IMG/VR virus record: IMGVR_UViG_2541047952_000001
Source of the DNA: a virus
Taxonomy: Duplodnaviria > Heunggongvirae > Uroviricota > Caudoviricetes
DNA: 41,595 bases
Reading direction: 5' to 3' (one strand)
The notes below the pieces were generated by a model. That model did not search any database. It saw only the letters and a program-made list of their open reading frames with translations, and was not told where the DNA came from. Below, one piece after another: positions 12,483 through 34,675 of this stretch; the first letter of the stretch is position 1; every line of letters starts with the position of its first letter. A program made the position numbers and the translations under genes.

Positions 12483-12833
12483 TTACTCCTTAGAGCCACC
12501 AAACTTGTTACCGATTACTCTCATTGCAGCCCCACGAATAGCATCGACACCGATCAACCCAACGCCACCACCAATGGCAACAGAAAGCGATTTAGGCCAT
12601 CCGACATACTCAAGAGCGGATGCAAAAGTCAGCGTCAGAGCGCCGCAGAGCAAAATCTCGAGCGTTTTTCGCTTCCAGCCACCACCACCGCCAAAATAGG
12701 CAATGCGCAAGCCAGCCATAACGATCGACATAATTACTGCGCCCAGCGGTGTGTCTCCACGCCACCAGCTCTGTAACAATTCAAGTAAGTCAGACCAGGA
12801 ATGAGGATCGTTATGCATTTTCATAATTCCCAC
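12483..12833 (-). CDS. holin (lambda S-like, three predicted TM segments; possible dual-start motif)
   Basis: 116-aa ORF directly upstream of the endolysin; N-terminus MGIMKMHNDPH has closely spaced Met codons as in holin/antiholin pairs. Confidence 0.75.
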   Translation of the reverse strand: MGIMKMHNDPHSWSDLLELLQSWWRGDTPLGAVIMSIVMAGLRIAYFGGGGGWKRKTLEILLCGALTLTFASALEYVGWPKSLSVAIGGGVGLIGVDAIRGAAMRVIGNKFGGSKE

Positions 12834-12911
12834 CTCCGGTTATCGGAAGTGCAACGAGTGAAGGGAAAGAAGCTGGTTATAGCGCTGAGTCGCAAAAGTT
12901 GCGTAGTGCAC

Positions 12912-12944
12912 AAAAAAGGCCGCCCACAGGCAGCCTCTTTTTAT
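12912..12944. terminator. hairpin flanked by A-run and T-run (bidirectional terminator-like)
   Basis: AAAAAA-GGCCGCCcacaGGCAGCC-TCTTTTTAT between the Zn-ribbon gene stop (12956) and the holin start (12833). Confidence 0.4.
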
Positions 12945-12955
12945 AATTCATTGAG

Positions 12956-13198
12956 TTAACAACATTTAAATGCTGGTGGTATAGAAGGTTTTTCACCAGA
13001 ACGACAAGCCGGACACCATGACTGAACGATATGCCTTCCGTCTCCCATATCCCTATAACCAAAGTCTATTGTTTTATAAAAAACGTGCACTCCGGCATCA
13101 GCAGAACATTTTGGGCAAGATTTATATTCAACGCCATCTTGTTCAACTTCTCGTGAATAACTTAATGACTGCTCACAAACAGAACAACGCTCCACCAT
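12956..13198 (-). CDS. small Cys-rich (zinc-ribbon-like) protein, first gene after tR'
   Basis: 80-aa ORF with three CxxC pairs (CSVC, CPKC, CPAC) and a terminal CC; RBS AGGAGAG; occupies the Q-to-holin slot. Confidence 0.5.
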   Translation of the reverse strand: MVERCSVCEQSLSYSREVEQDGVEYKSCPKCSADAGVHVFYKTIDFGYRDMGDGRHIVQSWCPACRSGEKPSIPPAFKCC

Positions 13199-13352
13199 AT
13201 ATGCTCTCCTGTTTTTGATAGAGATTTATGGGTAGCAATTCCATTCAAAAGAAACATTGAAGGGTGTCACTTTTTCAAAATGAGCGTAGCTGGCTGCCAG
13301 TTTTTTGTACAACACACTTTAAGGAAGGAGAGCCTTAAAAACACAATTGACA

Positions 13353-13380
13353 TCAATAAAAAACCGCTCGGTGGCGGTTT
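13353..13380 (-). terminator. tR'-like intrinsic terminator downstream of Q
   Basis: Reverse strand reads AAACCGCcaccgaGCGGTTT followed by TTTTTTATT, about 100 nt downstream of the Q stop. Confidence 0.55.
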
Positions 13381-13486
13381 CTTGAAGATTATCAACGGTA
13401 GACACACAAAGCCCATCGTTAGGAGAATCCTAACCAAATTTTTTGAAAAATGCAAGAATCATGTCGCCATCTTCGGCGAAAATCAT
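13381..13486 (-). promoter_or_regulatory. late promoter (PR'-like) and candidate Q-utilisation region
   Basis: Between the Q stop and the tR'-like terminator; contains the perfect palindrome GTTAGGAgaaTCCTAAC (13418..13434) and promoter-like hexamers on the reverse strand. Confidence 0.35.
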
Positions 13487-14266
13487 TTATCTCGTCACTT
13501 TTCTTAATTGCGCCTCAGCATATGCTTCTTCCTGCCAGCACTTTGTCACCAGTTTATCAATGACATCTGCATATCCTTTGTACCACTGATAATCCGTCAG
13601 GTCTGGTACCAGCTTCTGGACATGATGCCGCGCCAGTGTGGTTGGTAAACGGCTAAACCGATTTCCATTGCAACGCCCACAAATCTTATAAACAGGCGTG
13701 CCATGAAGCCGGGTCCTTTTTTCATCCAGGACAATACCTTTACCCTTACACCCTCTGCACGCTGTGCTGACTTCTCCCTTACCATGACAATGCTGACATA
13801 GTTCCTTCACCCACTCTTCCTTGATAACAGATTCCCCGCTTCTGGAGTGTTTCACCACTTCGCGCAATACATTATGAAATCCAGTACCAGCACAATGCTC
13901 ACAGCGAGCCTTACTTGCCGCAGACCTGGAATAATCAGCAAAGGCAAAATTCACAAGGTAAGGAATAATCTGTAGCCGGGTTTCTTCACTCAATTTATTC
14001 AATGTCGGGTTATCCAGTGCCATCGCGTAATTGAGCAGACCTTCAATCGCAAACTGAGGATCCTGAACACCAACTTTTGCCAGGAATAAGGCAAACCCAA
14101 GCGGTGCTTTCGACTGCACCATCCCCTGCGCAGCCATCACATCCGTAATTGTTAAACCACCAGAGCCTGTCGCCGGTGCGTCATCGCTCAATTTTGGAGA
14201 TTTTGGGGAGTAATATTTCGGTAAGGCTTCAAGGTTCATGCTCGTTCTCCACTTACGCCAGTACAC
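13487..14266 (-). CDS. late antiterminator Q (zinc-finger type)
   Basis: 259-aa ORF with Cys clusters (CEHCAGTG...CQHCHGKG...CRGCKGKG...CGRCNGN) directly upstream of PR'/tR' and the lysis cassette. Confidence 0.7.
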   Translation of the reverse strand: MYWRKWRTSMNLEALPKYYSPKSPKLSDDAPATGSGGLTITDVMAAQGMVQSKAPLGFALFLAKVGVQDPQFAIEGLLNYAMALDNPTLNKLSEETRLQIIPYLVNFAFADYSRSAASKARCEHCAGTGFHNVLREVVKHSRSGESVIKEEWVKELCQHCHGKGEVSTACRGCKGKGIVLDEKRTRLHGTPVYKICGRCNGNRFSRLPTTLARHHVQKLVPDLTDYQWYKGYADVIDKLVTKCWQEEAYAEAQLRKVTR

Positions 14267-15248
14267 CTATTGCCAGCGCACGATCGATAAAACGAAATAT
14301 CAGCTCCAGCTGGGAGCCATACTTCTCTTCAAATGCCACGGTATCCGCATGCAGCTCGTCGTGATGCTTTCTGCACAAAGGCAACACAAAGAGGTCATGC
14401 CCTTTTGTTCCCATTCCACCCTGACCGTGACCTATCAGGTGGTGGGGATCATCAGCAGGCTTTCCACAACATGCACACGGCTGTGTCTTAACCCAGCGCG
14501 TGTACTTTTCATTAACCCAGCGGCGACGTTTTGGGCGTAACATAAAAGACTCCGGCGACTCCGGATCCACTTTCAGCGCCAGCACCTTTTTCGCCTTATC
14601 CTGGATGATGCTGGTGGCAGGAACCGAAGGCACAAGGTCACTTTCCCGGGTGACAGACGGCACAACAGGATTCGGTAATCTCAGTGCCTTACGGGCTGCA
14701 CTTTCCGGTAAGGCGTCCGCCAGGTCATTACGAATCAGCCACCAGCACAGTTCCGGCATTGTCACAACGTGACTGTCATCAAAACCGAGATCCCGACGCA
14801 CAACAGACAACACCCAGCGGGCACAGTTATCCGTTGCCATTGATTCCAGCCGTTCCGTGAACTGATCGCGCAGCTGGTTATCGCAGTGCCAGCACAGACG
14901 GATTGCGCCCGGAGCGTGTCGCATTGTTGTCATGTTCTCGCTGTGCCAGTCGGAATGAAGCCACTGGCAGCCTTTTTCACGAAGTAACCAGCTTTCAAGA
15001 CATTCCACGCCACCAGCACGACGGATCACTGCCTCATTGCGGAACACGGCCCGAACGGCAGGATCATCCGCCAGCGGTTGTGATGCCGCGGGAACGGCAC
15101 CACTGGCGAAAGATGAATAACGTTCCGGCTCAGGCTCCAGCAGGACACGCCCCTGCATAAACAAGGGCATCAGCTCTGAACCTGGCCTGAACAATACGAT
15201 CCCCATACGCGGGGCAATTTCAGGGGTCAGTAGTGCTCTCACGGTCAC
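14253..15248 (-). CDS. NinG/Rap-like protein with C-terminal HNH-like zinc motif
   Basis: 331-aa ORF in the nin-type region; C-terminal CACCGKPADDPHHLIGHG...CRKHHDELH resembles the Zn/HNH motif of lambda NinG-type recombination nucleases. Confidence 0.55.
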   Translation of the reverse strand: MTVRALLTPEIAPRMGIVLFRPGSELMPLFMQGRVLLEPEPERYSSFASGAVPAASQPLADDPAVRAVFRNEAVIRRAGGVECLESWLLREKGCQWLHSDWHSENMTTMRHAPGAIRLCWHCDNQLRDQFTERLESMATDNCARWVLSVVRRDLGFDDSHVVTMPELCWWLIRNDLADALPESAARKALRLPNPVVPSVTRESDLVPSVPATSIIQDKAKKVLALKVDPESPESFMLRPKRRRWVNEKYTRWVKTQPCACCGKPADDPHHLIGHGQGGMGTKGHDLFVLPLCRKHHDELHADTVAFEEKYGSQLELIFRFIDRALAIGVLA

Positions 15249-15249
15249 C

Positions 15250-16092
15250 TCAATGAACGGTATCGAGCAGCTTTAACAGCTCTGGGAATCGGGATTCGAA
15301 GAAATGCGGCTGCGTCTCGCGCGGATTTGCGGGACTGGTGATGTTCTTGCCGAACATGCAGCCTTTCGCTGTCAGCGACCAGAATTTTTTGATGTTGTTA
15401 ATCGCGGTACGGCTGTATCGTTCGCGCTGCTCGACGATCCCCAGCTTCACCATCTGGTGATATGCCTGATTAGCCGTCAGGCGGATACCATACTGTTTCA
15501 GCAGTGCACTCAGCGACAGCGTGGGGCGACTTGAGCCATCAGGCGCGTCAGCAGGAGCCTCAATGGCATAGCGCGGTGCCAGATTCGGTAAGCCAACAGC
15601 CTCCTGGAGTTTCTGACAGGCACCAAGCACAGATGAGTTAGACAGGTTTAACTCCCGACGCATAAAGTCCAGCAGAATCACACCAGCCTGCATCTTGTCA
15701 GCAGCCTGCCCGGATAATTTTTCCGGTGCGCTGGTTACCATATCGAAAGTACGGATCACCTTCAGATGGAATGACGGACTGATCCACATTGCATAGGCAT
15801 ACACCAGTTCTTTGCAGACATACGTTCCCCGTTCATTGCCCCCATGAATCACACTCACCGGGTCAACACCCAAATTCTGGGTGTTGGTCAATTCATGAAC
15901 AAGCTCAACAGTTTGTTGGCTGGAAAGAAACTTTCCTGGCTCCTTGGTTCTGGCATTTGCACCAGATGCTACTGCTGCGCGATGCAGATCGTTCAGGCTG
16001 TAACGCCCATAAGCATCACAACGAACTTCAATACCATCAATGACCATCAGATTATTCATACTTCGTTTCTCCTCTTGATCAGGCGGCTGCAC
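15250..16092 (-). CDS. KilA-N domain protein
   Basis: 280-aa ORF; N-terminal region (NLMVIDGIEVRCDAYGRYSLNDLHRAA) resembles KilA-N domains; nin-region position. Confidence 0.55.
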   Translation of the reverse strand: MQPPDQEEKRSMNNLMVIDGIEVRCDAYGRYSLNDLHRAAVASGANARTKEPGKFLSSQQTVELVHELTNTQNLGVDPVSVIHGGNERGTYVCKELVYAYAMWISPSFHLKVIRTFDMVTSAPEKLSGQAADKMQAGVILLDFMRRELNLSNSSVLGACQKLQEAVGLPNLAPRYAIEAPADAPDGSSRPTLSLSALLKQYGIRLTANQAYHQMVKLGIVEQRERYSRTAINNIKKFWSLTAKGCMFGKNITSPANPRETQPHFFESRFPELLKLLDTVH

Positions 16093-16468
16093 CCGCCGTT
16101 TTCTCGTACTTACTGATAGTGATCTCGACCTTCCCTTCCGGGATAACCGATCCCCACTCCACCAGCATTCTTTTCACCTGACTGTCGTCTTCCCACACCC
16201 CCGCGTGGGTCAGGGCGTCAAACAGCGCCTTGTTATAGTTGTCCAGATCGCGGATCCTGTTATCCGGAGGAAACAACACGATCTCCACTGAAGCAGGTGC
16301 CGACGTTGGTTTCGGCAGACGACGTAACTGCTCAACTATTGCTGCGCACGCCGCGCTCTGGAATTTTCGCCCCGCCGCGCTTATCAGGCTCTTACCAGCA
16401 AACGCCCCTTTGTTGGGGTGTCGCCAGTACGTGTTCACGCTGGGTGGAAAAGGCAGGATCAGCTTCAT
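16079..16468 (-). CDS. rusA: Holliday junction resolvase RusA
   Basis: 129-aa protein MKLILPFPPSVNTYWRH...RDLDNYNKALFDALTHAGVWEDDSQV, matching conserved RusA motifs. Confidence 0.85.
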   Translation of the reverse strand: MKLILPFPPSVNTYWRHPNKGAFAGKSLISAAGRKFQSAACAAIVEQLRRLPKPTSAPASVEIVLFPPDNRIRDLDNYNKALFDALTHAGVWEDDSQVKRMLVEWGSVIPEGKVEITISKYEKTAGAAA

Positions 16469-16791
16469 ACTTTCAGGCCCCTCTCATGTAACCAGTGGGT
16501 TGCACGCAGCCTTGCGTTTTCCTCACCGGCAAGCAGTGAGCGGATAATCCCGACCGCCTCGCTGTCGTCGTCCTTCACCGCGGTATGAAGCGTGATGCCC
16601 CGGGCCACGCCACGCTTTATCGTGATGACGCCTTTTTTCTCCAGTGCGCGAAGATGCTCCACCGCTGCATTCACTGAACGGTATCCCAGCATGGTTGCCA
16701 CCTCCTGATTGGTTGGCGGGAAGCCACGTTCTTTCTGATAAGAAATCAGCATATCCAGCACCTGCTGCTGGCATTGAGTTAACGTCGTCAT
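16465..16791 (-). CDS. LexA N-terminal DNA-binding-domain protein (no peptidase domain)
   Basis: 108-aa ORF QQQVLDMLISYQKERGFPPTNQEVATMLGYRSVNAAVEHLRALEKKGVI resembles the LexA winged-helix domain; no S24 catalytic region follows. Confidence 0.6.
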   Translation of the reverse strand: MTTLTQCQQQVLDMLISYQKERGFPPTNQEVATMLGYRSVNAAVEHLRALEKKGVITIKRGVARGITLHTAVKDDDSEAVGIIRSLLAGEENARLRATHWLHERGLKV

Positions 16792-17441
16792 GCCGCCATC
16801 TCCCTGACCAGTTTTTCTGCCTGCTGGCGAACCTGCGCCAGAAAGGCCTCACCACATGCCTCAAGTTCATCGCGCCCGATGTAGCTGATTGCCGGTCCCT
16901 TCCAGGTCTTGTCGAAAACAGCAATAGCACCAGCGAAGAAAGCGCCTGTCGGCACCTGCTTCTCATCCTTCGGGATAAACCAGGCAGGCAGTTCAAAACC
17001 AATACGCCCGCGAATAAAAGCAATATGATCTGCATCTTCCGGCCACCACACTTCGCTGGTGGCAGCTTTGATCAGGAAAACATAGCGCCCGCCTTTATCA
17101 CGCATGGCACTGGCATGCTTCATGATGTAACGCATGCCGGTAATGTATTGCCCCTCATGCTGACTGGCGCGGCTGTATGGGGGATTACCAAAGGCAGCAC
17201 CTTTAAGCTCCGCAAGGCGTTCTGACCAGTCATGCGCCAGCGCGTTGTCTTCCGCCGTGTAATACGCAGCACATTTGGCGTTATCACCGTCAGTGAACAG
17301 ATCCAGAACAAACGGGCCAAACAGGGTGTTAATTCCCCAGAAAATGTTGTCCGGCGTGCGCCACTGATCGCCCACTTCCTTCAGTTCATGGGCTGGTTTG
17401 TTCCGCAGTTCCGCCAGCGCCTGGCAATATTTATTACTCAT
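16788..17441 (-). CDS. phage DNA N6-adenine methyltransferase (Dam-like)
   Basis: Contains FGNPPY. Preferred start MSNKYCQ at 17441 is translationally coupled (TAATG) to the upstream gene; the ORF track begins at 17474. Confidence 0.75.
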   Translation of the reverse strand: MSNKYCQALAELRNKPAHELKEVGDQWRTPDNIFWGINTLFGPFVLDLFTDGDNAKCAAYYTAEDNALAHDWSERLAELKGAAFGNPPYSRASQHEGQYITGMRYIMKHASAMRDKGGRYVFLIKAATSEVWWPEDADHIAFIRGRIGFELPAWFIPKDEKQVPTGAFFAGAIAVFDKTWKGPAISYIGRDELEACGEAFLAQVRQQAEKLVREMAA

Positions 17442-17935
17442 TAAGCCCCCACGTAATTCCCTGAGAGATACCACTCTTCACCTGATGCAGCCTGCTTACT
17501 GCTTTTCCGTAAACACCGTTCACGACGCGCCAGAAAATTGTTTCGTTCTGGCTGGGAGTGGCTTTCACGGAATGCCGCCATCCACACGGTTGCAGCACGA
17601 CGGTATAAGCCCCTGGACTCCAGTTCTTCAGCCTGGCGGGTCAGGCACAAAATCACCCGGGGATCGTTAGTGCCGACATAGAAATTGCGCACAGGTCTGG
17701 TTTCTCGAACTGGTTGTGGTTCCGGTTCCTGCGCTCTCTCAGTCAGGCGCGGGAAATGTCTGCGTGTATCTCCTTCACAACGGTGAGCCACACGCCCACT
17801 CTGACGTAACTTGCTTGCTGACTGCAGAACGCGCTGCCGTGAGTAACCTGCAAAAGCATCCGCAATGTCTCCGGAAGTACATCCCGGATGGGCTTCAATG
17901 AATTTCTGAACTTCATTCAAAAGACTCATTATCAC
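17441..17935 (-). CDS. putative regulatory protein (PerC/ANR-like C-terminal region)
   Basis: 164-aa ORF overlapping the replication gene stop by 4 nt; C-terminal LESRGLYRRAATVWMAAF is reminiscent of PerC-family activators. Weak assignment. Confidence 0.4.
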   Translation of the reverse strand: MIMSLLNEVQKFIEAHPGCTSGDIADAFAGYSRQRVLQSASKLRQSGRVAHRCEGDTRRHFPRLTERAQEPEPQPVRETRPVRNFYVGTNDPRVILCLTRQAEELESRGLYRRAATVWMAAFRESHSQPERNNFLARRERCLRKSSKQAASGEEWYLSGNYVGA

Positions 17936-27109: not shown

Positions 27110-27293
27110 ATGTTAATGCATTTTTAACTACTTGAGCAATCAATCAAAACAACATACTTTATATTATAAAACACCAAGTTATAGCAATAAACCCGTTGAT
27201 TGAAATTAACAAAAGTTGATGTTTATTCCCTCCATTTACTTACACCAGCAGTTACATTATTGTAAGACAGCAATTCTCAACTGGAGCCGAAAA

Positions 27294-28619
27294 ATGGCGC
27301 TTTCAAGACAAAAATTTACCTTCGAAAGACTTCGCAGATTCACCTTACCGGAAGGGAAAAAACAAACTTTTCTTTGGGATGCAGATGTAACAACCCTGGC
27401 ATGCCGAGCAACTAGCGGAGCAAAAGCCTTTGTATTCCAAAGCGTATATGCGGGGAAAACCCTTCGCATGACTATTGGCAACATTAACGACTGGAAGATT
27501 GATGATGCGAGAGCCGAGGCAAGACGGTTACAAACATTGATCGATACAGGGATAGATCCACGAATTGCTAAGGCTGTAAAAATCGCAGAAGCAGAATCCC
27601 TGCAGGCAGAATCACGTAAAACAAAAGTGACTTTCTCCGTCGCCTGGGAAGACTATCTTCAAGAATTGAGAACCGGTATCAGTGCAAAAACTAAACGCCC
27701 ATATTCTACTCGATACATTGCCGATCACATTAACTTGTCCAGTCGTGGAGGCGAAAGTAAAAAAAGAGGCCAAGGCCCGACTTCGGCTGGACCATTGGCT
27801 AGTTTGCTCAACCTGCCGTTATCGGAGCTAACCCCAGATTACATAGCAGCGTGGCTGAGTACAGAAAGGCAAAATAGACCTACCGTCACTGCTCACGCTT
27901 ATCGCCTACTACGTGCTTTCATCAAATGGAGTAATTATCAGAAAAAATATCAAGGGATCATTCCTGGCGATCTGGCACAAGATTACAACGTAAGAAAAAT
28001 GGTTCCCGTGTCAGCGAGTAAAGCTGATGATTGCCTGCAAAAGGAACAACTAAAAAGCTGGTTTAGTGCCGTGCGTAGCCTCAATAATCCTATTGCATCG
28101 GCCTATCTCCAAGTACTTTTGCTCACTGGTGCTCGGCGTGAAGAAATTGCGTCGCTTCGCTGGTCAGACGTAGATTTCAAATGGTCAAGCATGCGAATTA
28201 AAGACAAGATCGAAGGTGAACGTATCATCCCTCTCACTCCTTATGTTTCTGAATTGTTAAATGTACTAGCGCAATCCCCAAATTCTGACGTAAATAAGGA
28301 GGGTTGGGTTTTCAGAAGTAACAGTAAAAGTGGCAAAATTATTGAGCCGCGTTCAGCGCACAACAGAGCGTTAGTGCTGGCTGAGTTACCACATATCAGC
28401 CTTCACGGTTTACGTCGTAGTTTTGGTACTTTGGCCGAGTGGGTTGAAGTTCCCACTGGTATTGTTGCTCAAATTATGGGACACAAACCCAGCGCTCTTG
28501 CCGAAAAACACTATCGCCGTCGTCCGTTAGATCTGTTACGAAAATGGCACGAGAAAATTGAGACATGGATCTTAAATGAAGCAGGTATTACCATAAAAAA
28601 CAACGTTGATATGCGTTGA
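27294..28619 (+). CDS. P4-type tyrosine integrase of a second integrative element (CP4-6 IntF-like)
   Basis: Preferred start MALSRQKFTFERLRRF at 27294 with GGAG RBS (track: 27216); C-terminal HGLRRSFGTLAEW...KHYRR catalytic-type motifs. Confidence 0.85.
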   Translation: MALSRQKFTFERLRRFTLPEGKKQTFLWDADVTTLACRATSGAKAFVFQSVYAGKTLRMTIGNINDWKIDDARAEARRLQTLIDTGIDPRIAKAVKIAEAESLQAESRKTKVTFSVAWEDYLQELRTGISAKTKRPYSTRYIADHINLSSRGGESKKRGQGPTSAGPLASLLNLPLSELTPDYIAAWLSTERQNRPTVTAHAYRLLRAFIKWSNYQKKYQGIIPGDLAQDYNVRKMVPVSASKADDCLQKEQLKSWFSAVRSLNNPIASAYLQVLLLTGARREEIASLRWSDVDFKWSSMRIKDKIEGERIIPLTPYVSELLNVLAQSPNSDVNKEGWVFRSNSKSGKIIEPRSAHNRALVLAELPHISLHGLRRSFGTLAEWVEVPTGIVAQIMGHKPSALAEKHYRRRPLDLLRKWHEKIETWILNEAGITIKNNVDMR

Positions 28620-28735
28620 TTCCATTAAAAATCAACATATTACAAAATATCATCAACTATTGATCAAGATAGATTTTCATGTATCGTAATACACAGTTTA
28701 GTCAATGATACAGCAACTACACAGGAGATAAGCCA

Positions 28736-29176
28736 ATGGCAACCCCAGCAACTGTATCCATAGAACCCACTCTGGCAGCTATCAGAGCTCGCTGGTGTAT
28801 TAATTCAAGTAAAACAACTCAATCCTTTAACGATCCTGCGTCCATGGAAGAGGTTGTCGAGTATCTCAAAGGAACATACTCAGCTCTTCGCAAGTCTGTC
28901 GCATGCGCCAAACTGAAAATTTTACATCTTAAACAAAGAATGCAAAATGCTACTAACTTTCTCGCGCGTCTGATGTCATGTAAAAATCAGGCATCCAGAT
29001 CGCATCACAGTACGGCTAAATCAGCTAAAAGTGCCTTATCATCAGATTCAGGTGATGGTAGTGACCCCGACCCCGAGCCCGAAACGTTTCCTTCTGCCTT
29101 CATTACTACCCCTACTAATTCAATAATGCTTAAAGCTTTCTTTGCCAATATCTCAATCACTGAGGTGGCAAAATGA
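28736..29176 (+). CDS. hypothetical protein (146 aa, YagN-like)
   Basis: First cargo gene after the integrase, translationally coupled to the AlpA-like gene by a 4-nt overlap; acidic Ser/Asp-rich C-terminal region. Confidence 0.45.
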   Translation: MATPATVSIEPTLAAIRARWCINSSKTTQSFNDPASMEEVVEYLKGTYSALRKSVACAKLKILHLKQRMQNATNFLARLMSCKNQASRSHHSTAKSAKSALSSDSGDGSDPDPEPETFPSAFITTPTNSIMLKAFFANISITEVAK

Positions 29177-29397
29177 GCGCATTCAAACTCCCGGATACAT
29201 CTCAATCACAGCTCATTTCAACAGCTGAGTTAGCTAAAATCATTAGCTACAAATCTCAAACCATTCGTAAATGGCTTTGTCAGGACAAATTGCCTGAGGG
29301 GCTACCTCGCCCAAAACAAATCAATGGCCGCCATTACTGGTTACGTAAAGATGTCCTCGATTTTATAGATACATTTTCTGTACGAGAAAGTCTGTAA
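29173..29397 (+). CDS. AlpA-family HTH regulator / excisionase-like protein
   Basis: 74-aa ORF LISTAELAKIISYKSQTIRKWLCQDKLP...INGRHYWLRKDV, typical AlpA-type fold signature. Confidence 0.65.
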   Translation: MSAFKLPDTSQSQLISTAELAKIISYKSQTIRKWLCQDKLPEGLPRPKQINGRHYWLRKDVLDFIDTFSVRESL

Positions 29398-29515
29398 TAA
29401 ATTACAGATTTAATTTTATTGATTTATAGCGATGTTGCCCCGAGAAAAATGGGGCAACACTGAGAAATTTCAGATAGTAGTTTTATATTGAGATAACAAA
29501 GAGGTTTCCTTAAAA

Positions 29516-30370
29516 ATGTCTAATAGTGTTACTAATTTTGAGATGAGCAGCGTTCTACCAGGAAAAAAACCTTGTCAAGGCAAAAACAATGAGTCACAGG
29601 TAGTACAGACTACTCCCATAAAAAAACACTCAGTCACGTTCAAAAATCAATCTTCATTAGGAGTAATTGATCATTATGCCAGACTAACAAATAAATCTCA
29701 CTCTTCCGTAATAGCGGAAGTTGTGGATTTGGCTATCCCTATATTAGAAAAATGCAATCGTCATAACTGGTCAATAAATGAAATAAAAAATGACCTGTTA
29801 AAGTTCTCTATAAAAGAAAGCATCAATCGAAGCCGAGGTAAAACAGAAGTAACTCTGGAAGAGTACTGTTCGTTAATCTGGAAAACGAACATCATGAGTC
29901 CATTAAAAATCCCCATTGCAGATTACTTTCAACTGAACGCTAATGATGAATTCATGGGGAAAGATGAAAAAACAGTTATACGTGAAAGGCTATCCTCGCT
30001 AAGGGAAAATTACGATATGGAAAAAGCCATTTACATTTACAATCAAAGACATTTTGATGTAAAGCATCAAAGTGTCTCAGGATATTCAAACATTATTCTT
30101 ATTCATAGAACAACCTTTGAGGGTTATTACTTTGATGCCGGGCAGGCTCTACTCTTGTCAACATCCCAATTGATTATATTCGGGATAAATGAAGTTCTTA
30201 GAAGAAAGGGGATTGTTATGCCTTATCCGGTTGTTTGTTGGATTGATATTTACCATGTCAATGAAATGGTGGTTATGCTGCCAGTGCTCCGCAAAACAGA
30301 TGTTTCCAACCGTGTTAATGTACCGGATGACATCATTATAAACCCATACTCACAAGAGAGCAGAACCTAA
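29516..30370 (+). CDS. hypothetical protein (284 aa, YagM-like)
   Basis: AT-rich ORF; no recognisable catalytic motif; size equals my recollection of CP4-6 YagM. Confidence 0.5.
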   Translation: MSNSVTNFEMSSVLPGKKPCQGKNNESQVVQTTPIKKHSVTFKNQSSLGVIDHYARLTNKSHSSVIAEVVDLAIPILEKCNRHNWSINEIKNDLLKFSIKESINRSRGKTEVTLEEYCSLIWKTNIMSPLKIPIADYFQLNANDEFMGKDEKTVIRERLSSLRENYDMEKAIYIYNQRHFDVKHQSVSGYSNIILIHRTTFEGYYFDAGQALLLSTSQLIIFGINEVLRRKGIVMPYPVVCWIDIYHVNEMVVMLPVLRKTDVSNRVNVPDDIIINPYSQESRT

Positions 30371-30396
30371 GAGGTAACAAAGAAGGACAAACAATT

Positions 30397-31095
30397 ATGA
30401 GAGGTAAAATACTACTTTACCAGTTAAAGTATCGCTGGCAATCACTCTCTATTTTTGGTTGTTTTTTATGCAAAATGACATTATTCAGGTATCAAAAAAT
30501 AATTTATGACACCGGAGTGCATCAGATGCGTTCATTTTTTTACACCATATGCAGTAGCGAACAGCAAGAAAGCATTACAGATCATCACTCACTTGCTGAG
30601 ATATGCCAAAAATTTAATATTCTACCTGAACATGTTGTGATCGAGCAGGTAGATATTAAAGAGGTTGTTTCAGAGCAACGTTTACTCAGACAATTGATTC
30701 ATCATGAAATGAACCGGCAGGACACGCTTGTCATTCCAGATCTAAGCTGTCTTGGCAGAACTGTGGAGGACTTACAGAATATTTTATTTTTTTGCCTTCA
30801 AAAAGAAATGTTTATCTACAGCTACCATCCAGCTTCAAGGATAGAGCCTTCTGCTGAAAGTTGCTTGTCTTTTTTGATTGCTCGTCAGGATACGATTGAC
30901 ATTCACAATCTGAAATCAACTAAAAGCCGATATCGACATGTTAAGAAGAAATTAGGACGAAAGGAGGGAAGCAAATACCGACGTGATATCACAATACTTA
31001 AGAAAGGTGGATTTACTCAGGCTGAGATTGCAAAGAAATTGAGTATCAGTTTATCGACTGTGAAGCGGCACTGGAATAACGGAATCATCGGTTAA
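30397..31095 (+). CDS. degenerate serine-recombinase-like DNA-binding protein (YagL-like)
   Basis: Resolvase-like layout: YTICSSEQQ resembles YARVSTxQQ but lacks the Arg; DTLVIPDLSCLGR resembles D.LVV.KLDRLGR; C-terminal HTH GFTQAEIAKKLSISLSTVKRHW. Possible internal start at 30526. Confidence 0.55.
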   Translation: MRGKILLYQLKYRWQSLSIFGCFLCKMTLFRYQKIIYDTGVHQMRSFFYTICSSEQQESITDHHSLAEICQKFNILPEHVVIEQVDIKEVVSEQRLLRQLIHHEMNRQDTLVIPDLSCLGRTVEDLQNILFFCLQKEMFIYSYHPASRIEPSAESCLSFLIARQDTIDIHNLKSTKSRYRHVKKKLGRKEGSKYRRDITILKKGGFTQAEIAKKLSISLSTVKRHWNNGIIG

Positions 31096-31199
31096 TTCCA
31101 GAAGCTAATTGCAGAGTAACTTTTTAACAGCCATCACAGGCTGGGGCTACCTTCGTCTCAAATTTAGATGTTGGATAGGTATTATATAATGGCATTGTG

Positions 31200-31358
31200 T
31201 ACTCTTACTACCTGTATTCACCAGTAAGAGTAGTAATCAGATCAGTATGTCCGTACTAAAATCTGATACCAGTATATACCGACAACAGTGACCAGGAATA
31301 GCCCTGCCTGTATGGCATCCCTGTACGGTCTGCTATAGACCGTAGGACCAAATACAGG
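31200..31358. repeat. cluster of nested inverted repeats upstream of the yagK-like gene
   Basis: TACTCTTACT / AGTAAGAGTA (31200..31209 and 31223..31232), TACGGTCT / AGACCGTA (31324..31331 and 31337..31344) and CCTGTAT / ATACAGG (31307..31313 and 31352..31358); consensus TATAAT at 31185..31190. Confidence 0.35.
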
Positions 31359-31366
31359 TATATATT

Positions 31367-31696
31367 ATGAAAACATATCAAGGTACTCATGGAGTACATA
31401 TCCTCGAATATCAGAGTAAGATTAATAAATTATTATGTTATTTGACTAACCGGTATCCTAGGTTAATTGCTGTACGTGTCGATCTCCACTATCCCAAAAT
31501 AGTTGATAACGGTGACAATATCTGTTGCTTCCCTAACCTGGAACCTGGGGTGATATCCCGGATGCGTGAATCCCTCAGAGCTAAGCTGGAGGCTGACCGT
31601 ACCCGTAAGGTGCGTGAGGATAAACGCATTTACCGTTGCCCTTTATTTATTATATGGGCGAAAGAGTATTCTGAATCAGGTAAATGCCACTATCAC
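31367..31696 (+). pseudogene. yagK-like gene truncated by IS1
   Basis: Reading frame runs from ATG 31367 straight into the IS1 left inverted repeat; the last 8 codons of the track ORF (GDAANLLI) are IS1 sequence. Confidence 0.5.
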
Positions 31697-31751
31697 GGTG
31701 ATGCTGCCAACTTACTGATTTAGTGTATGATGGTGTTTTTGAGGTGCTCCA

Positions 31752-32027
31752 GTGGCTTCTGTTTCTATCAGCTGTCCCTCCTGTTCAGCTACTGACGGGG
31801 TGGTGCGTAACGGCAAAAGCACCGCCGGACATCAGCGCTATCTCTGCTCTCACTGCCGTAAAACATGGCAACTGCAGTTCACTTACACCGCTTCTCAACC
31901 CGGTACGCACCAGAAAATCATTGATATGGCCATGAATGGCGTTGGATGCCGGGCAACAGCCCGCATTATGGGCGTTGGCCTCAACACGATTTTCCGCCAT
32001 TTAAAAAACTCAGGCCGCAGTCGGTAA
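31752..32027 (+). CDS. insA: IS1 InsA
   Basis: 91-aa product [43 protein letters not shown]... Confidence 0.9.
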
Positions 32028-32449
32028 CCTCGCGCATACAGCCGGGCAGTGACGTCATCGTCTGCGCGGAAATGGACGAACAGTGGGGATACGTCGGGGC
32101 TAAATCGCGCCAGCGCTGGCTGTTTTACGCGTATGACAGGCTCCGGAAGACGGTTGTTGCGCACGTATTCGGTGAACGCACTATGGCGACGCTGGGGCGT
32201 CTTATGAGCCTGCTGTCACCCTTTGACGTGGTGATATGGATGACGGATGGCTGGCCGCTGTATGAATCCCGCCTGAAGGGAAAGCTGCACGTAATCAGCA
32301 AGCGATATACGCAGCGAATTGAGCGGCATAACCTGAATCTGAGGCAGCACCTGGCACGGCTGGGACGGAAGTCGCTGTCGTTCTCAAAATCGGTGGAGCT
32401 GCATGACAAAGTCATCGGGCATTATCTGAACATAAAACACTATCAATAA
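31946..32449 (+). CDS. insB: IS1 InsB (expressed as InsAB' transposase by -1 frameshift)
   Basis: 167-aa ORF in the -1 frame relative to insA, overlapping its 3' end. Confidence 0.85.
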
Positions 32450-32531
32450 GTTAGAGTCATTACCGAAGTGATCGTATAACCAAGGGAGTAACCCGAGTAA
32501 CTGAGCGCCGAAATATTACGACTGGACGCCA

Positions 32532-32708
32532 GATGAATTTACGTCTGACGGGACTTGATGATGATGCTTTGTCGATGCTAGTTGAAAAGGTTCAGGAAAA
32601 ACTTCCAAATAAAAATGTAACACGCTCGCGCGTTCTGCGAGCAGCTTGCTATCTTCAAGACGATAAACTGCTTCAAAAGCTTGCACAGTCACTACTTGAA
32701 AACACGTA
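32532..32708 (+). CDS. small hypothetical protein (58 aa)
   Basis: Hand-translated MNLRLTGLDDDALSMLVEKVQEKLPNKNVTRSRVLRAACYLQDDKLLQKLAQSLLENT; helical and charged, followed by a TATATA-rich tract. Preferred over the antisense 80-aa track ORF 32516..32758. Confidence 0.3.
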
Positions 32709-33046
32709 ATGTATATATATTTATATATACAAAATTTAGTGTGAAATGCTCTTGCCAAATTTGTTATACTGGATTGGTGGTATATGCTTTTGTATATACA
32801 TTTTTAGTATTTTCATTAATTAAATTAATTTGTTAGATTCCTGTTCGAGAGTTTTGGATGGTCGTAGTATATTTCGCTTAAGCGGCCATTCCAGATTGAC
32901 TTCCTGACCTTGCAAGCCAGAGTTTCCTTCGCTAGAGGCTGATGCTTTTTTACAGGACTAGGGCAGGGGGGGGATGAAAAACCCTCTCCCCTAAGTGCTG
33001 TAGCAGTCACAACTGGAGGTGAGGAAACCCGAAAATAATTTGTTAG

Positions 33047-34318
33047 TCATAACCGGGCTATGGGCAAATCAGTCCACCTGGTTGTATAAGCGGGAGAAAG
33101 GATCTCCCGCTTCATCTGCCATTCAGGCGCAATTCCCCGCCCCGCAAACCAGACTTTCCCCAGGCCGGAATGGTTGATGCCGTCGAGCACCTTCATCAGC
33201 TTATCACTGTGTGCTCTGGGCTGTACGTCATCAAACAGATTCAGCTGAGAGACGCCGGTCGGGGAGAAATCGTTCAGCATGATGCCGGCTTTGGCATAGC
33301 GATGGCCGGAGACCCAGATCCTGTCCAGCGCTCTGACTGCAGCAGTAATAATGTCCCGGGTGTCCCGCGTGGGTGTCATCAGTTTCTCTGTTGCCAGATT
33401 GCCGTAATAGGGCTCGTTGATGGCGAACGGCGAAGTTTTAATGAAAGCCGAGATATGCCGGCAGTACTGGTGCTCTCCGCGCAGCTTCTCCGCAGCGCGT
33501 TCTGCATGCTGACAGATGGCCTGACGCATGGCTTCATACGTTGTGACGCGTTCTCCGAAAGAACGGCTGCAGACAATCTGCTGTTTTGGCGGGGGTGCTT
33601 CTTCCAGCAAAATGCACGGTTCTCCGTTCAGTTCACGAACCGTTCTCTCCAGTACCACGTTGAAGTTTTTCCGGATGAAGGTTGGATTCGCGCGCGCCAA
33701 CTGCAGCGCAGTGGTGATACCCATTGTCCCCAGCGTCTTCGAAATTCTCCGGCCCACACCCCAGATTTCTTCCACCGGCTGCAGTGAGAGCAGTTTCTCC
33801 GTCCGGTGGGGATTGCCCGGGGTCAGGGCCAGAACGCCGCCAAATTGTGGCCATTCTTTTGACGCCCATTGAGCGCTTTTAGCCAGCGTTTTCGTGGGGC
33901 CCATGCCGACACCGATGGTGAGTCCCGTACCGTTACCAACATGGACACGCAGCTGCCGACCAAAGTCTTCAAAGTCAATACAGCGGTTGATGCCCCGGAT
34001 ATCGAGGAACATCTCGTCAATGGAATACTGTTCCACGCGCGGCGCCAGCTCTTCCAGATGAGTCATCACCCTGGCGGACATCGAGGCGTACAGCTCATAG
34101 TTGCTGGAGAACACGTGCAGCTTCTCGGGAAACTGTGCGTCCTTCAGCTGGAACCACGGTACGCCCATTTTGATGCCAAGTAGTTTTGCTTCTTTTGAGC
34201 GGGCGATAACGCAGCCGTCGTTGTTGCTCAGCACGACAACCGGTTTACCCCGCAGGTCAGGGCGAAACACCTTCTCGCAGCTGTCATAGAACGAATTGAC
34301 GTCGGCCAGGGCAAACAT
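33047..34318 (-). CDS. umuC: Y-family translesion DNA polymerase subunit UmuC (UmuC/MucB family)
   Basis: 423-aa [48 protein letters not shown]... with clear UmuC-type N-terminal and internal motifs. Confidence 0.9.
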
Positions 34319-34395
34319 CAGTCCGCTCCACGCGTCTTATGGATAAACGCGGTCACCACACCAAAAATCTGCAGCGTCTCCGGGTCAGGGTGAAG
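34318..34395 (-). pseudogene. umuD 3' remnant (truncated; no S24 peptidase domain, no LexA box seen)
   Basis: Only the last roughly 25 codons (...[29 protein letters not shown]) resemble the UmuD C-terminus; the stop overlaps the umuC ATG (TGATG). Upstream sequence is unrelated and carries a REP-like element. Confidence 0.55.
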
Positions 34396-34573
34396 GGCAG
34401 GGTATCGCAAGGTGTGGCGACCTGCCAGCGGGAAAGGTAGCAGCATTAATAGAGTGGAAAGAGAAGACCTGGCAGACAGGGAGTCAAATTGCTGACAACG
34501 GTTATACTGTGCGGCACTTCGCCTGAACAGGCTATGGTATAAAAATAACGCACTGATATTAATATACTTTAAA

Positions 34574-34600
34574 GCCGGATAATGCGAAGCCGCATCCGGC
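34574..34600. repeat. REP-like palindromic unit
   Basis: GCCGGATaatgcgaagccgcATCCGGC, a typical enterobacterial extragenic palindrome form. Confidence 0.5.
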
Positions 34601-34675
34601 AAAACGGCATATAAAAGAGTAAAATCAGACTTACCATCAGTCTGACGCCCCCGGCAGACAGGGGCGAAATCATGC

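Follow-up and report, generated by a model that had tools for sequence, protein, structure and literature searches.

What use does a prophage make of a LexA-type DNA-binding domain that comes without the LexA protease? This question is raised by a 108-amino-acid (aa) open reading frame (ORF) at 16465–16791, minus strand, of a 41,595-nucleotide stretch of Caudoviricetes DNA (IMG/VR record IMGVR_UViG_2541047952_000001), the whole of which is called the window here. A sequence-only reading had described the product as a LexA N-terminal winged-helix domain lacking the autopeptidase domain, encoded in a nin-type region, that could either occupy SOS boxes without being cleavable or titrate LexA partners. 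The position of the ORF and the gene order from O to Q confirm its setting, and the domain searches bear out both the likeness and the missing domain. Specifically, the Pfam domain LexA_DNA_bind (PF01726) covers residues 1–65 of the protein over the full profile (positions 1–65 of 65; E=2.9e-19; score 69 bits, cut-off 23.7), and the top PDB sequence matches are E. coli LexA chains (E ~1e-15). Residues 1–69 align with E. coli LexA without gaps and are identical at 35 of 69 positions (51%), a count made on a LexA sequence whose residues 2–86 agree with the PDB alignment. Peptidase_S24 gives no Pfam match in the 108-aa protein, whose chain ends at residue 108, and the lexA equivalog TIGR00498 (NCBIfam) scores 70.8 bits, below its cut-off of 110.95, with only profile positions 1–91 of 203 aligned. 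The match to PHROG 362 ('transcriptional repressor') is full-length (residues 1–108 against profile positions 1–106 of 106; E=1.1e-59, 200 bits). The gene product is a stand-alone LexA-type winged-helix protein, carrying a full-length LexA_DNA_bind domain far beyond chance; judged by its equivalog score and the missing S24 domain, it does not classify as a LexA repressor proper. As a component of a known defence system it found no backing, PADLOC returning just a weak generic winged-helix match.

The predicted structure agrees with this assignment. We modelled the phage protein with AlphaFold2 (AF2) from a 32-sequence family alignment; the model, with a mean predicted local distance difference test score (pLDDT) of 81, consists of helices 6–22, 28–35 and 40–52 and a two-strand wing (56–58 and 66–68). 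The top Foldseek match against the PDB is 3jso_A, a LexA–DNA complex, with a root-mean-square deviation of 0.9 Å over 67 residues and 51% identity, so that the protein shares its winged-helix fold with E. coli LexA (PDB 1lea, 1jhh, 3jso) and falls into no different winged-helix family. A LexA-like recognition helix is present, which reads RSVNAAVEHLRAL in the phage protein and RSPNAAEEHLKAL in LexA. According to a secondary source, on which our contact list rests, LexA touches DNA through Ser39, Asn41, Ala42, Glu44, and Glu45 (PMC3091678). Four of these five residues are retained in the phage protein, namely Ser39 (just before the helix), Asn41, Ala42, and Glu45, while Glu44 is replaced by Val; His46 and the wing residues Arg64-Gly65-Ile66 are kept as well. 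Ser39, Asn41, Arg64, Gly65, and Ile66 are invariant across the family alignment.

Beyond the winged helix the phage protein differs from E. coli LexA. It has no hinge, no cleavage loop and no S24 domain (the site of the LexA catalytic residues Ser119 and Lys156), and with them it lacks RecA-dependent inactivation and LexA-type dimerisation; in their place it carries a family-specific two-helix tail. In the AF2 model, a low-confidence linker leads into helices 74–88 and 93–103, which have a pLDDT of ~85. The tail, of 35–40 residues, is conserved down to ~40% identity, with Ala97 invariant and Ala93 and Leu101 nearly so. No Pfam or PDB-sequence family was found for it, Pfam giving only sub-threshold matches to NIL and the PDB nothing below E=1; the tail had at first looked like a HEAT-like repeat, which these searches did not support. 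We also considered a relic of the LexA cleavage site, for the HMMER alignment with LexA reaches an 'AGE' (query residue 90, LexA residue 86) and this allele has Ala88-Gly89 ('LLAGEE'). The aligned position elsewhere in the family reads AEEPG, NGEDQ, ERESD, and others, and we judged the resemblance coincidental because the Ala-Gly varies across the family and a helix is predicted for the segment. Since residues 88–89 vary in this way, RecA-stimulated self-cleavage is not expected. Nor can RecA* inactivate a protein whose sequence shows no catalytic domain. LexA itself dimerises through its C-terminal domain (PMC10584840); in the phage protein the modelled tail may be the element for dimerisation or for partner binding.

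The tail is not universal among related phage proteins. A homologue from an Edwardsiella phage is 71 aa long and consists of the domain only, and that of Proteus phage vB_BPM-V3 (locus L005, 3878–4357; 159 aa) has an N-terminal extension, LexA_DNA_bind, and a motif resembling NinF (27.7 bits, cut-off 27.5), with NinG encoded next. Judging by these architectures, the LexA_DNA_bind domain is joined to different C-terminal pieces in different phages. As a separate observation, P0132, P0156, and ~16 further distant matches carry two tandem LexA_DNA_bind domains with recognition helices of the SPNGVMCH type and no S24 domain, an arrangement that would be another route to two reading heads for a palindrome.

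The gene is common and already annotated by similarity. It is carried by 2233 of 5426 complete E. coli genomes (~40%), where the PGAP name is 'LexA family transcriptional regulator' (e.g. WP_000210170.1), and by 61 phage records, including SfV, SfII, SfIV, cdtI, mEp460, and many Stx2c phages, under the labels 'LexA DNA binding domain protein', 'LexA-like protein' and 'transcriptional repressor'. The proteins gathered under PHROG 362 and the NCBI name (SfV, SfII, SfIV, cdtI, mEp460, Stx2c) belong to the same family: they are 95–100% identical and stand in the same dam–lexA-like–rusA context. The identical 108-aa protein occurs on at least 1000 contigs. A profile search found relatives in Citrobacter, Salmonella, Cronobacter, Klebsiella, Enterobacter, Atlantibacter, Kosakonia, Raoultella, and Hafnia; conservation of the family across Enterobacterales reaches down to ~40% identity. 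Literature searches on the family returned catalogue mentions alone and no functional study, one such mention being pham 237 in 15 Stx phages (PMC8136144). Proteins in which the LexA DNA-binding domain (DBD) stands alone are widespread among phages, and the present gene is an ordinary member of these protease-less LexA homologues; by sequence comparison, the distinguishing marks of its family are the conserved two-helix tail and the altered position 44. Among 80 IMG/VR loci with a 98–100% identical allele we counted 47 distinct DNA alleles, nearly all with 2–10 synonymous and 0–2 non-synonymous differences from the window, a pattern consistent with purifying selection in a sample that was picked by protein identity and therefore biases dN low. 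The stronger argument for function is that the domain and the tail are both conserved across genera.

How, then, would such a protein act? We tentatively read it as a non-cleavable regulator acting on CTGT-type, SOS-like operators, a reading that we consider possible, if somewhat short of an even chance. The protein would be a RecA-proof, sequence-specific DNA-binding regulator that probably dimerises via its tail, and we infer that it recognises CTGT-type half-sites resembling those of the SOS box. The most likely outcome would be that SOS-type operators are occupied again after the host LexA has been destroyed; these operators would belong to the host and, among relatives, to phage modules too. 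We prefer the SOS-type operator model because of the likeness to LexA, the four retained contacts, the non-cleavability, the repression exerted by the free LexA N-terminal domain, and a target that appears to be portable. The free domain retains some SOS-box binding and repression, and its signal for ClpX is exposed only by LexA cleavage (PMC10584840). The post-cleavage fragment LexA 1–84, which shows residual repression until ClpXP removes it, is likewise a LexA DBD without the C-terminal domain and by analogy serves as a natural precedent for an uncleavable occupant of SOS boxes. That fragment is reportedly short-lived, cleavage being said to expose a C-terminal Val-Ala-Ala degron (attributed to Neher et al. 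2003); the phage protein differs from it in ending with Gly-Leu-Lys-Val and in adding the conserved tail.

The portability of the target is suggested by what travels with the allele. We mapped the 80 loci onto the window by BLAST. The segment encoding DUF968, KilA-N, RusA, and the LexA-like protein (14250–16790) is common to 74–80 of them, with RusA co-inherited in all 80 and KilA-N and DUF968/HNH in 74–77; PerC is shared by 76, dam by 54, and the Q allele by 30. The region from Q to the lysis genes, which holds the late promoter, is shared by 3 of the 80 and the immunity region (20000–22000) by 3–4, and none of the non-coding intervals of the window's prophage is common to more than ~40%. An operator in the immunity switch or in a Q-specific late promoter would be expected to co-travel with the allele, and none does, which disfavours a late-promoter activator of the kind known from gp6 of the Bacillus tectivirus GIL01. 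The mosaic pattern of these sequences instead favours a portable target, whether host DNA, some site within the conserved coding module, or a protein, with the caveat that BLAST would miss short operators in diverged DNA and that all 80 loci are close relatives.

Several observations weigh against the SOS-type operator model. Relatives were gathered by an exhaustive HMMER search and a profile search, and 132 sequences with the C-terminal tail were tallied at positions 44 and 45. None of the 132 carries Glu at position 44, where the residues are V (55), A (19), N (17), T (16), L (14), and F (8); Glu44 is present in 10 of 12 S24-bearing LexA proteins from the same match lists. Position 45 is E in 78, D in 36, and L in 10, with T, G, and I among the others, and it differs among subfamilies together with neighbouring positions of the recognition helix (SVNAAVEH, SPNAANDH, SPNAATDM, SSNAVLLH, SPNAAAEH). 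The Enterobacterales hosts of these subfamilies share one SOS-box consensus. Because the helix varies while the hosts share one consensus, a family-wide constraint to the canonical SOS box is disfavoured, and the tail family forms, by these alignments, a distinct lineage of LexA-derived DNA binders whose recognition helix is systematically altered and diversifying. Furthermore, no SOS box was found in the window's prophage: matches to CTGT-N8-ACAG with at most one mismatch are at chance level in the window (14 found, 13.4 expected), and the sole exact one, CTGTAATAAATTACAG at 29392–29407, is located not in the prophage but in a second integrase island. Finally, gp6, the only characterised phage LexA-DBD protein, is an activator that binds a non-LexA palindrome. 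The proposal of an uncleavable SOS-box occupant therefore stands in part: the missing S24 domain, the four of five contacts, and the portable target speak for it, and the loss of Glu44 in 132 of 132 relatives, the variable position 45, the lack of a box in the prophage, and the gp6 precedent speak against it, which leaves it plausible and partly supported.

The phages that share this gene do appear to use SOS boxes, as judged from occurrence in the 80 loci and not from enrichment. Phage-borne boxes from relatives include TACTGTTTTTACATACAGTA, TACTGTATTTATGAACAGTG, and TACTGTAAAAATAAACAGTG. A near-perfect box, AATACTGTTTTTACATACAGTATT (L006, 3045–3060), recurs in 24 loci, a one-base spacer variant included; it sits within the coding sequence of a different cI (helix-turn-helix (HTH) plus S24), in the linker between the two domains, and 12 specified palindromic bases are unlikely to arise inside a gene by chance. 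Two more look canonical: GATACTGTATTTATGAACAGTGTA (L024, 8116–8131) is found where an alternative KilA-N gene begins, in 5 loci, directly after rusA in 3 of the 5, and AATACTGTAAAAATAAACAGTGTT (L007, 11002–11017), present in 24 loci, covers the first codons of a DNA methyltransferase encoded in the late region.

If SOS operators are indeed bound, induced phages would gain, through a very common prophage gene, a way to override the host's response to DNA damage. This would matter for mutagenesis, for cross-induction among prophages (Stx prophages included), and for SOS effects triggered by antibiotics; the carriers include several Stx-converting phages and Shigella serotype-converting phages. 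A more specific version takes the protein as a phage 'SOS off-switch', a RecA-proof LexA mimic that after induction would re-repress host SOS operators and the SOS boxes of co-resident mobile elements, or a shifted, CTGT-like set of sites. We regard this version as unlikely, at roughly one chance in four; if true, SOS-induced functions and rival prophages would be silenced while the phage completes its lytic cycle.

The strongest competitor of the SOS-type operator model is a phage transcription factor in the manner of gp6, in which the specificity has drifted to an own palindromic operator, in phage or host, from which promoters are activated or repressed during lytic development. GIL01 gp6 is a truncated LexA homologue that activates the late promoter P3, where it binds the palindrome GaCACAC-GTGTGaC at position -43.5 (PMC6182141). 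It shares with the present protein the Pfam domain and the non-cleavability, and it is made early in the lytic programme, as the present protein would be. The invariable replacement of Glu44, the diversification of positions 42–46, as in phage regulators of differing specificity, and the wide occurrence of stand-alone LexA-DBD proteins in phages all fit such a role. In contrast, gp6 is a 66-aa protein consisting of the domain only, with Lys38 in its recognition helix and no tail; it resembles Bacillus LexA (44% identity), whereas the phage protein resembles gammaproteobacterial LexA, and BLASTP aligns the two nowhere at E<=100. The gp6 palindrome adjoins LexA boxes, and GIL01 is under LexA control; the prophage in the window, by contrast, encodes an S24-type CI of its own and lacks an SOS box. 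A palindrome scan of all its non-coding intervals gave terminator-like or unrelated palindromes only and no repeated CTGT-like operator, the overlapping genes leave no intergenic space from O to Q, and the allele is unlinked to the immunity, Q, and late-promoter modules. With four of five LexA contacts kept in this allele as well, we consider a gp6-type factor somewhat unlikely. Should the protein use an operator of its own, it would add a second worked example, arisen independently of gp6, of a LexA DBD recycled by phages as a private regulator.

A further explanation is that the protein is a DNA-binding accessory of little sequence specificity, which tethers or targets the recombination nucleases of the nin region (RusA, DUF968/HNH, NinG). 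Distant homologues with 37–47% identity are likewise encoded between the replication genes and Q, beside RusA, DUF968, or NinG. The order is LexA-like–RusA–DUF968 in mEp390, LexA-like–67 aa–DUF968 in Klebsiella, LexA-like directly before DUF968 in Edwardsiella, and LexA-like/NinF–NinG in Proteus, and the same module occurs in Citrobacter. This persistent synteny, the co-inheritance of RusA and DUF968 with the allele, and a recognition helix whose variation would be tolerable if specificity were irrelevant agree with an accessory role. So does P0158, a 240-aa protein on one ENA contig that joins a tailless LexA_DNA_bind domain to the HNH portion, C-terminal, of DUF968; we gave this fusion little weight as Rosetta-stone evidence, since it is a singleton on one contig, and instead of being functional it may have arisen by deletion as a prophage decayed. 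Moreover, the gene order of nin regions is fixed in any case, which makes adjacency weak evidence, and the invariant Ser39 and Asn41 suggest that bases are read, so that an accessory of this kind appears improbable.

Least probable, and hardly to be expected, is a decoy, in line with the titration of LexA partners that the sequence-only reading had offered as its second option and that finds no support. Such a protein would not act on DNA but would sequester the factors that normally bind LexA (RecA*, ClpXP, phage co-repressors). Its overall likeness to the N-terminal domain of LexA and a tail without known homology would leave room for partner binding, but the C-terminal domain through which LexA dimerises and to which RecA* and phage gp7 bind is absent, the ClpX signal, a new C-terminal Val-Ala-Ala, needs LexA cleavage and the phage protein ends in Leu-Lys-Val, and all members of the family alignment share the DNA-contact residues Ser39, Asn41, and Arg64-Gly65.

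The setting of the gene suggests when the protein would appear. LexA is an autoregulated host gene, whereas the phage protein is encoded in a phage early operon, with the minus-strand order O-like replication gene, PerC/YfdN-like, Dam, LexA-like, RusA, KilA-N, DUF968/HNH, and Q (Table 1). On the minus strand, promoter-like or terminator-like sites are absent from ~20230, in the early promoter region, down to the LexA-like gene, and an internal promoter for lysogenic expression was likewise not supported, the scan of 12800–20300 on this strand giving no promoter-like site. The simplest reading, since no internal promoter-like or terminator-like site intervenes, is transcription in the early-right operon during lytic development. 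The rightward early promoter would drive the LexA-like gene along with the delayed-early (nin) genes, with translation coupled to that of dam and rusA, and we infer that the protein is made after induction or infection and not in the quiescent lysogen. The prophage owns a RecA-cleavable CI, and its induction switch is therefore independent of the LexA-like gene.

Table 1 Features of the LexA-like gene, its product and its genomic surroundings in the window.
Feature	Coordinates	Strand	Basis or detail
LexA-type DNA-binding protein gene	16465-16791	minus	108 aa, ATG start, TGA stop (stop codon 16465-16467)
Winged helix-turn-helix, LexA N-terminal-domain fold (residues 1-69)	16585-16791	minus	AF2, Foldseek, 35/69 identity
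Recognition helix (residues 40-52)	16636-16674	minus	Residue comparison with LexA, AF2
Two-helix tail, family-specific, in place of the LexA hinge and S24 domain (residues 74-103)	16483-16572	minus	AF2
Overlap of dam stop and LexA-like start	16788-16804	minus	Sequence reading; ATGA 16788-16791, GGGAG 16800-16804, 8 nt upstream of ATG
Overlap of LexA-like stop and rusA start (ATGA)	16465-16468	minus	Sequence reading
Dam N6-adenine methyltransferase, upstream neighbour	16788-17474	minus	PF05869, E=1.2e-45
RusA Holliday-junction resolvase, downstream neighbour	16079-16468	minus	PF05866
KilA-N protein	15250-16092	minus	Pfam
DUF968/HNH protein	14253-15248	minus	Pfam
Q	13487-14266	minus	
PerC/YfdN-like protein, same operon	17441-17935	minus	Pfam PF06069
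O-like replication gene	17932-18873	minus	
Prophage CI-type repressor, HTH_3 and Peptidase_S24	20176-20862	plus	Pfam

Additional features were observed around the gene. The PerC family (PF06069), to which the product encoded two genes upstream of the LexA-like gene belongs, is annotated as transcriptional activators. On the strand opposite to cI and overlapping its end, a 306-aa ORF (20845–21765, minus) ends in a BRCT domain (Pfam E=1.4e-6, C-terminal) and matches PDC-S48 weakly in PADLOC; it may be an accessory or defence gene. The second integrative island (27216–34602) adjoins the prophage and starts with a P4-type integrase (27216–28619). It contains a resolvase/sigma-like ORF (30397–31095), a YagK/YfjJ-like fragment, an IS1 transposase (31946–32449), and a UmuC-like Y-family polymerase (33047–34318) with a short ORF (34318–34602) directly upstream, and the DNA upstream of the polymerase showed no SOS box; the exact box of this island lies ~110 bp upstream of an ORF (29516–30370) that has no Pfam match. 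Within the O-like replication gene, a 15-bp unit, CAGATTTTGACGGGT, is repeated 4.3 times at 18501–18564 and encodes a low-complexity SDPSK/SDASK stretch; these repeats are probably the iterons of a replication origin.

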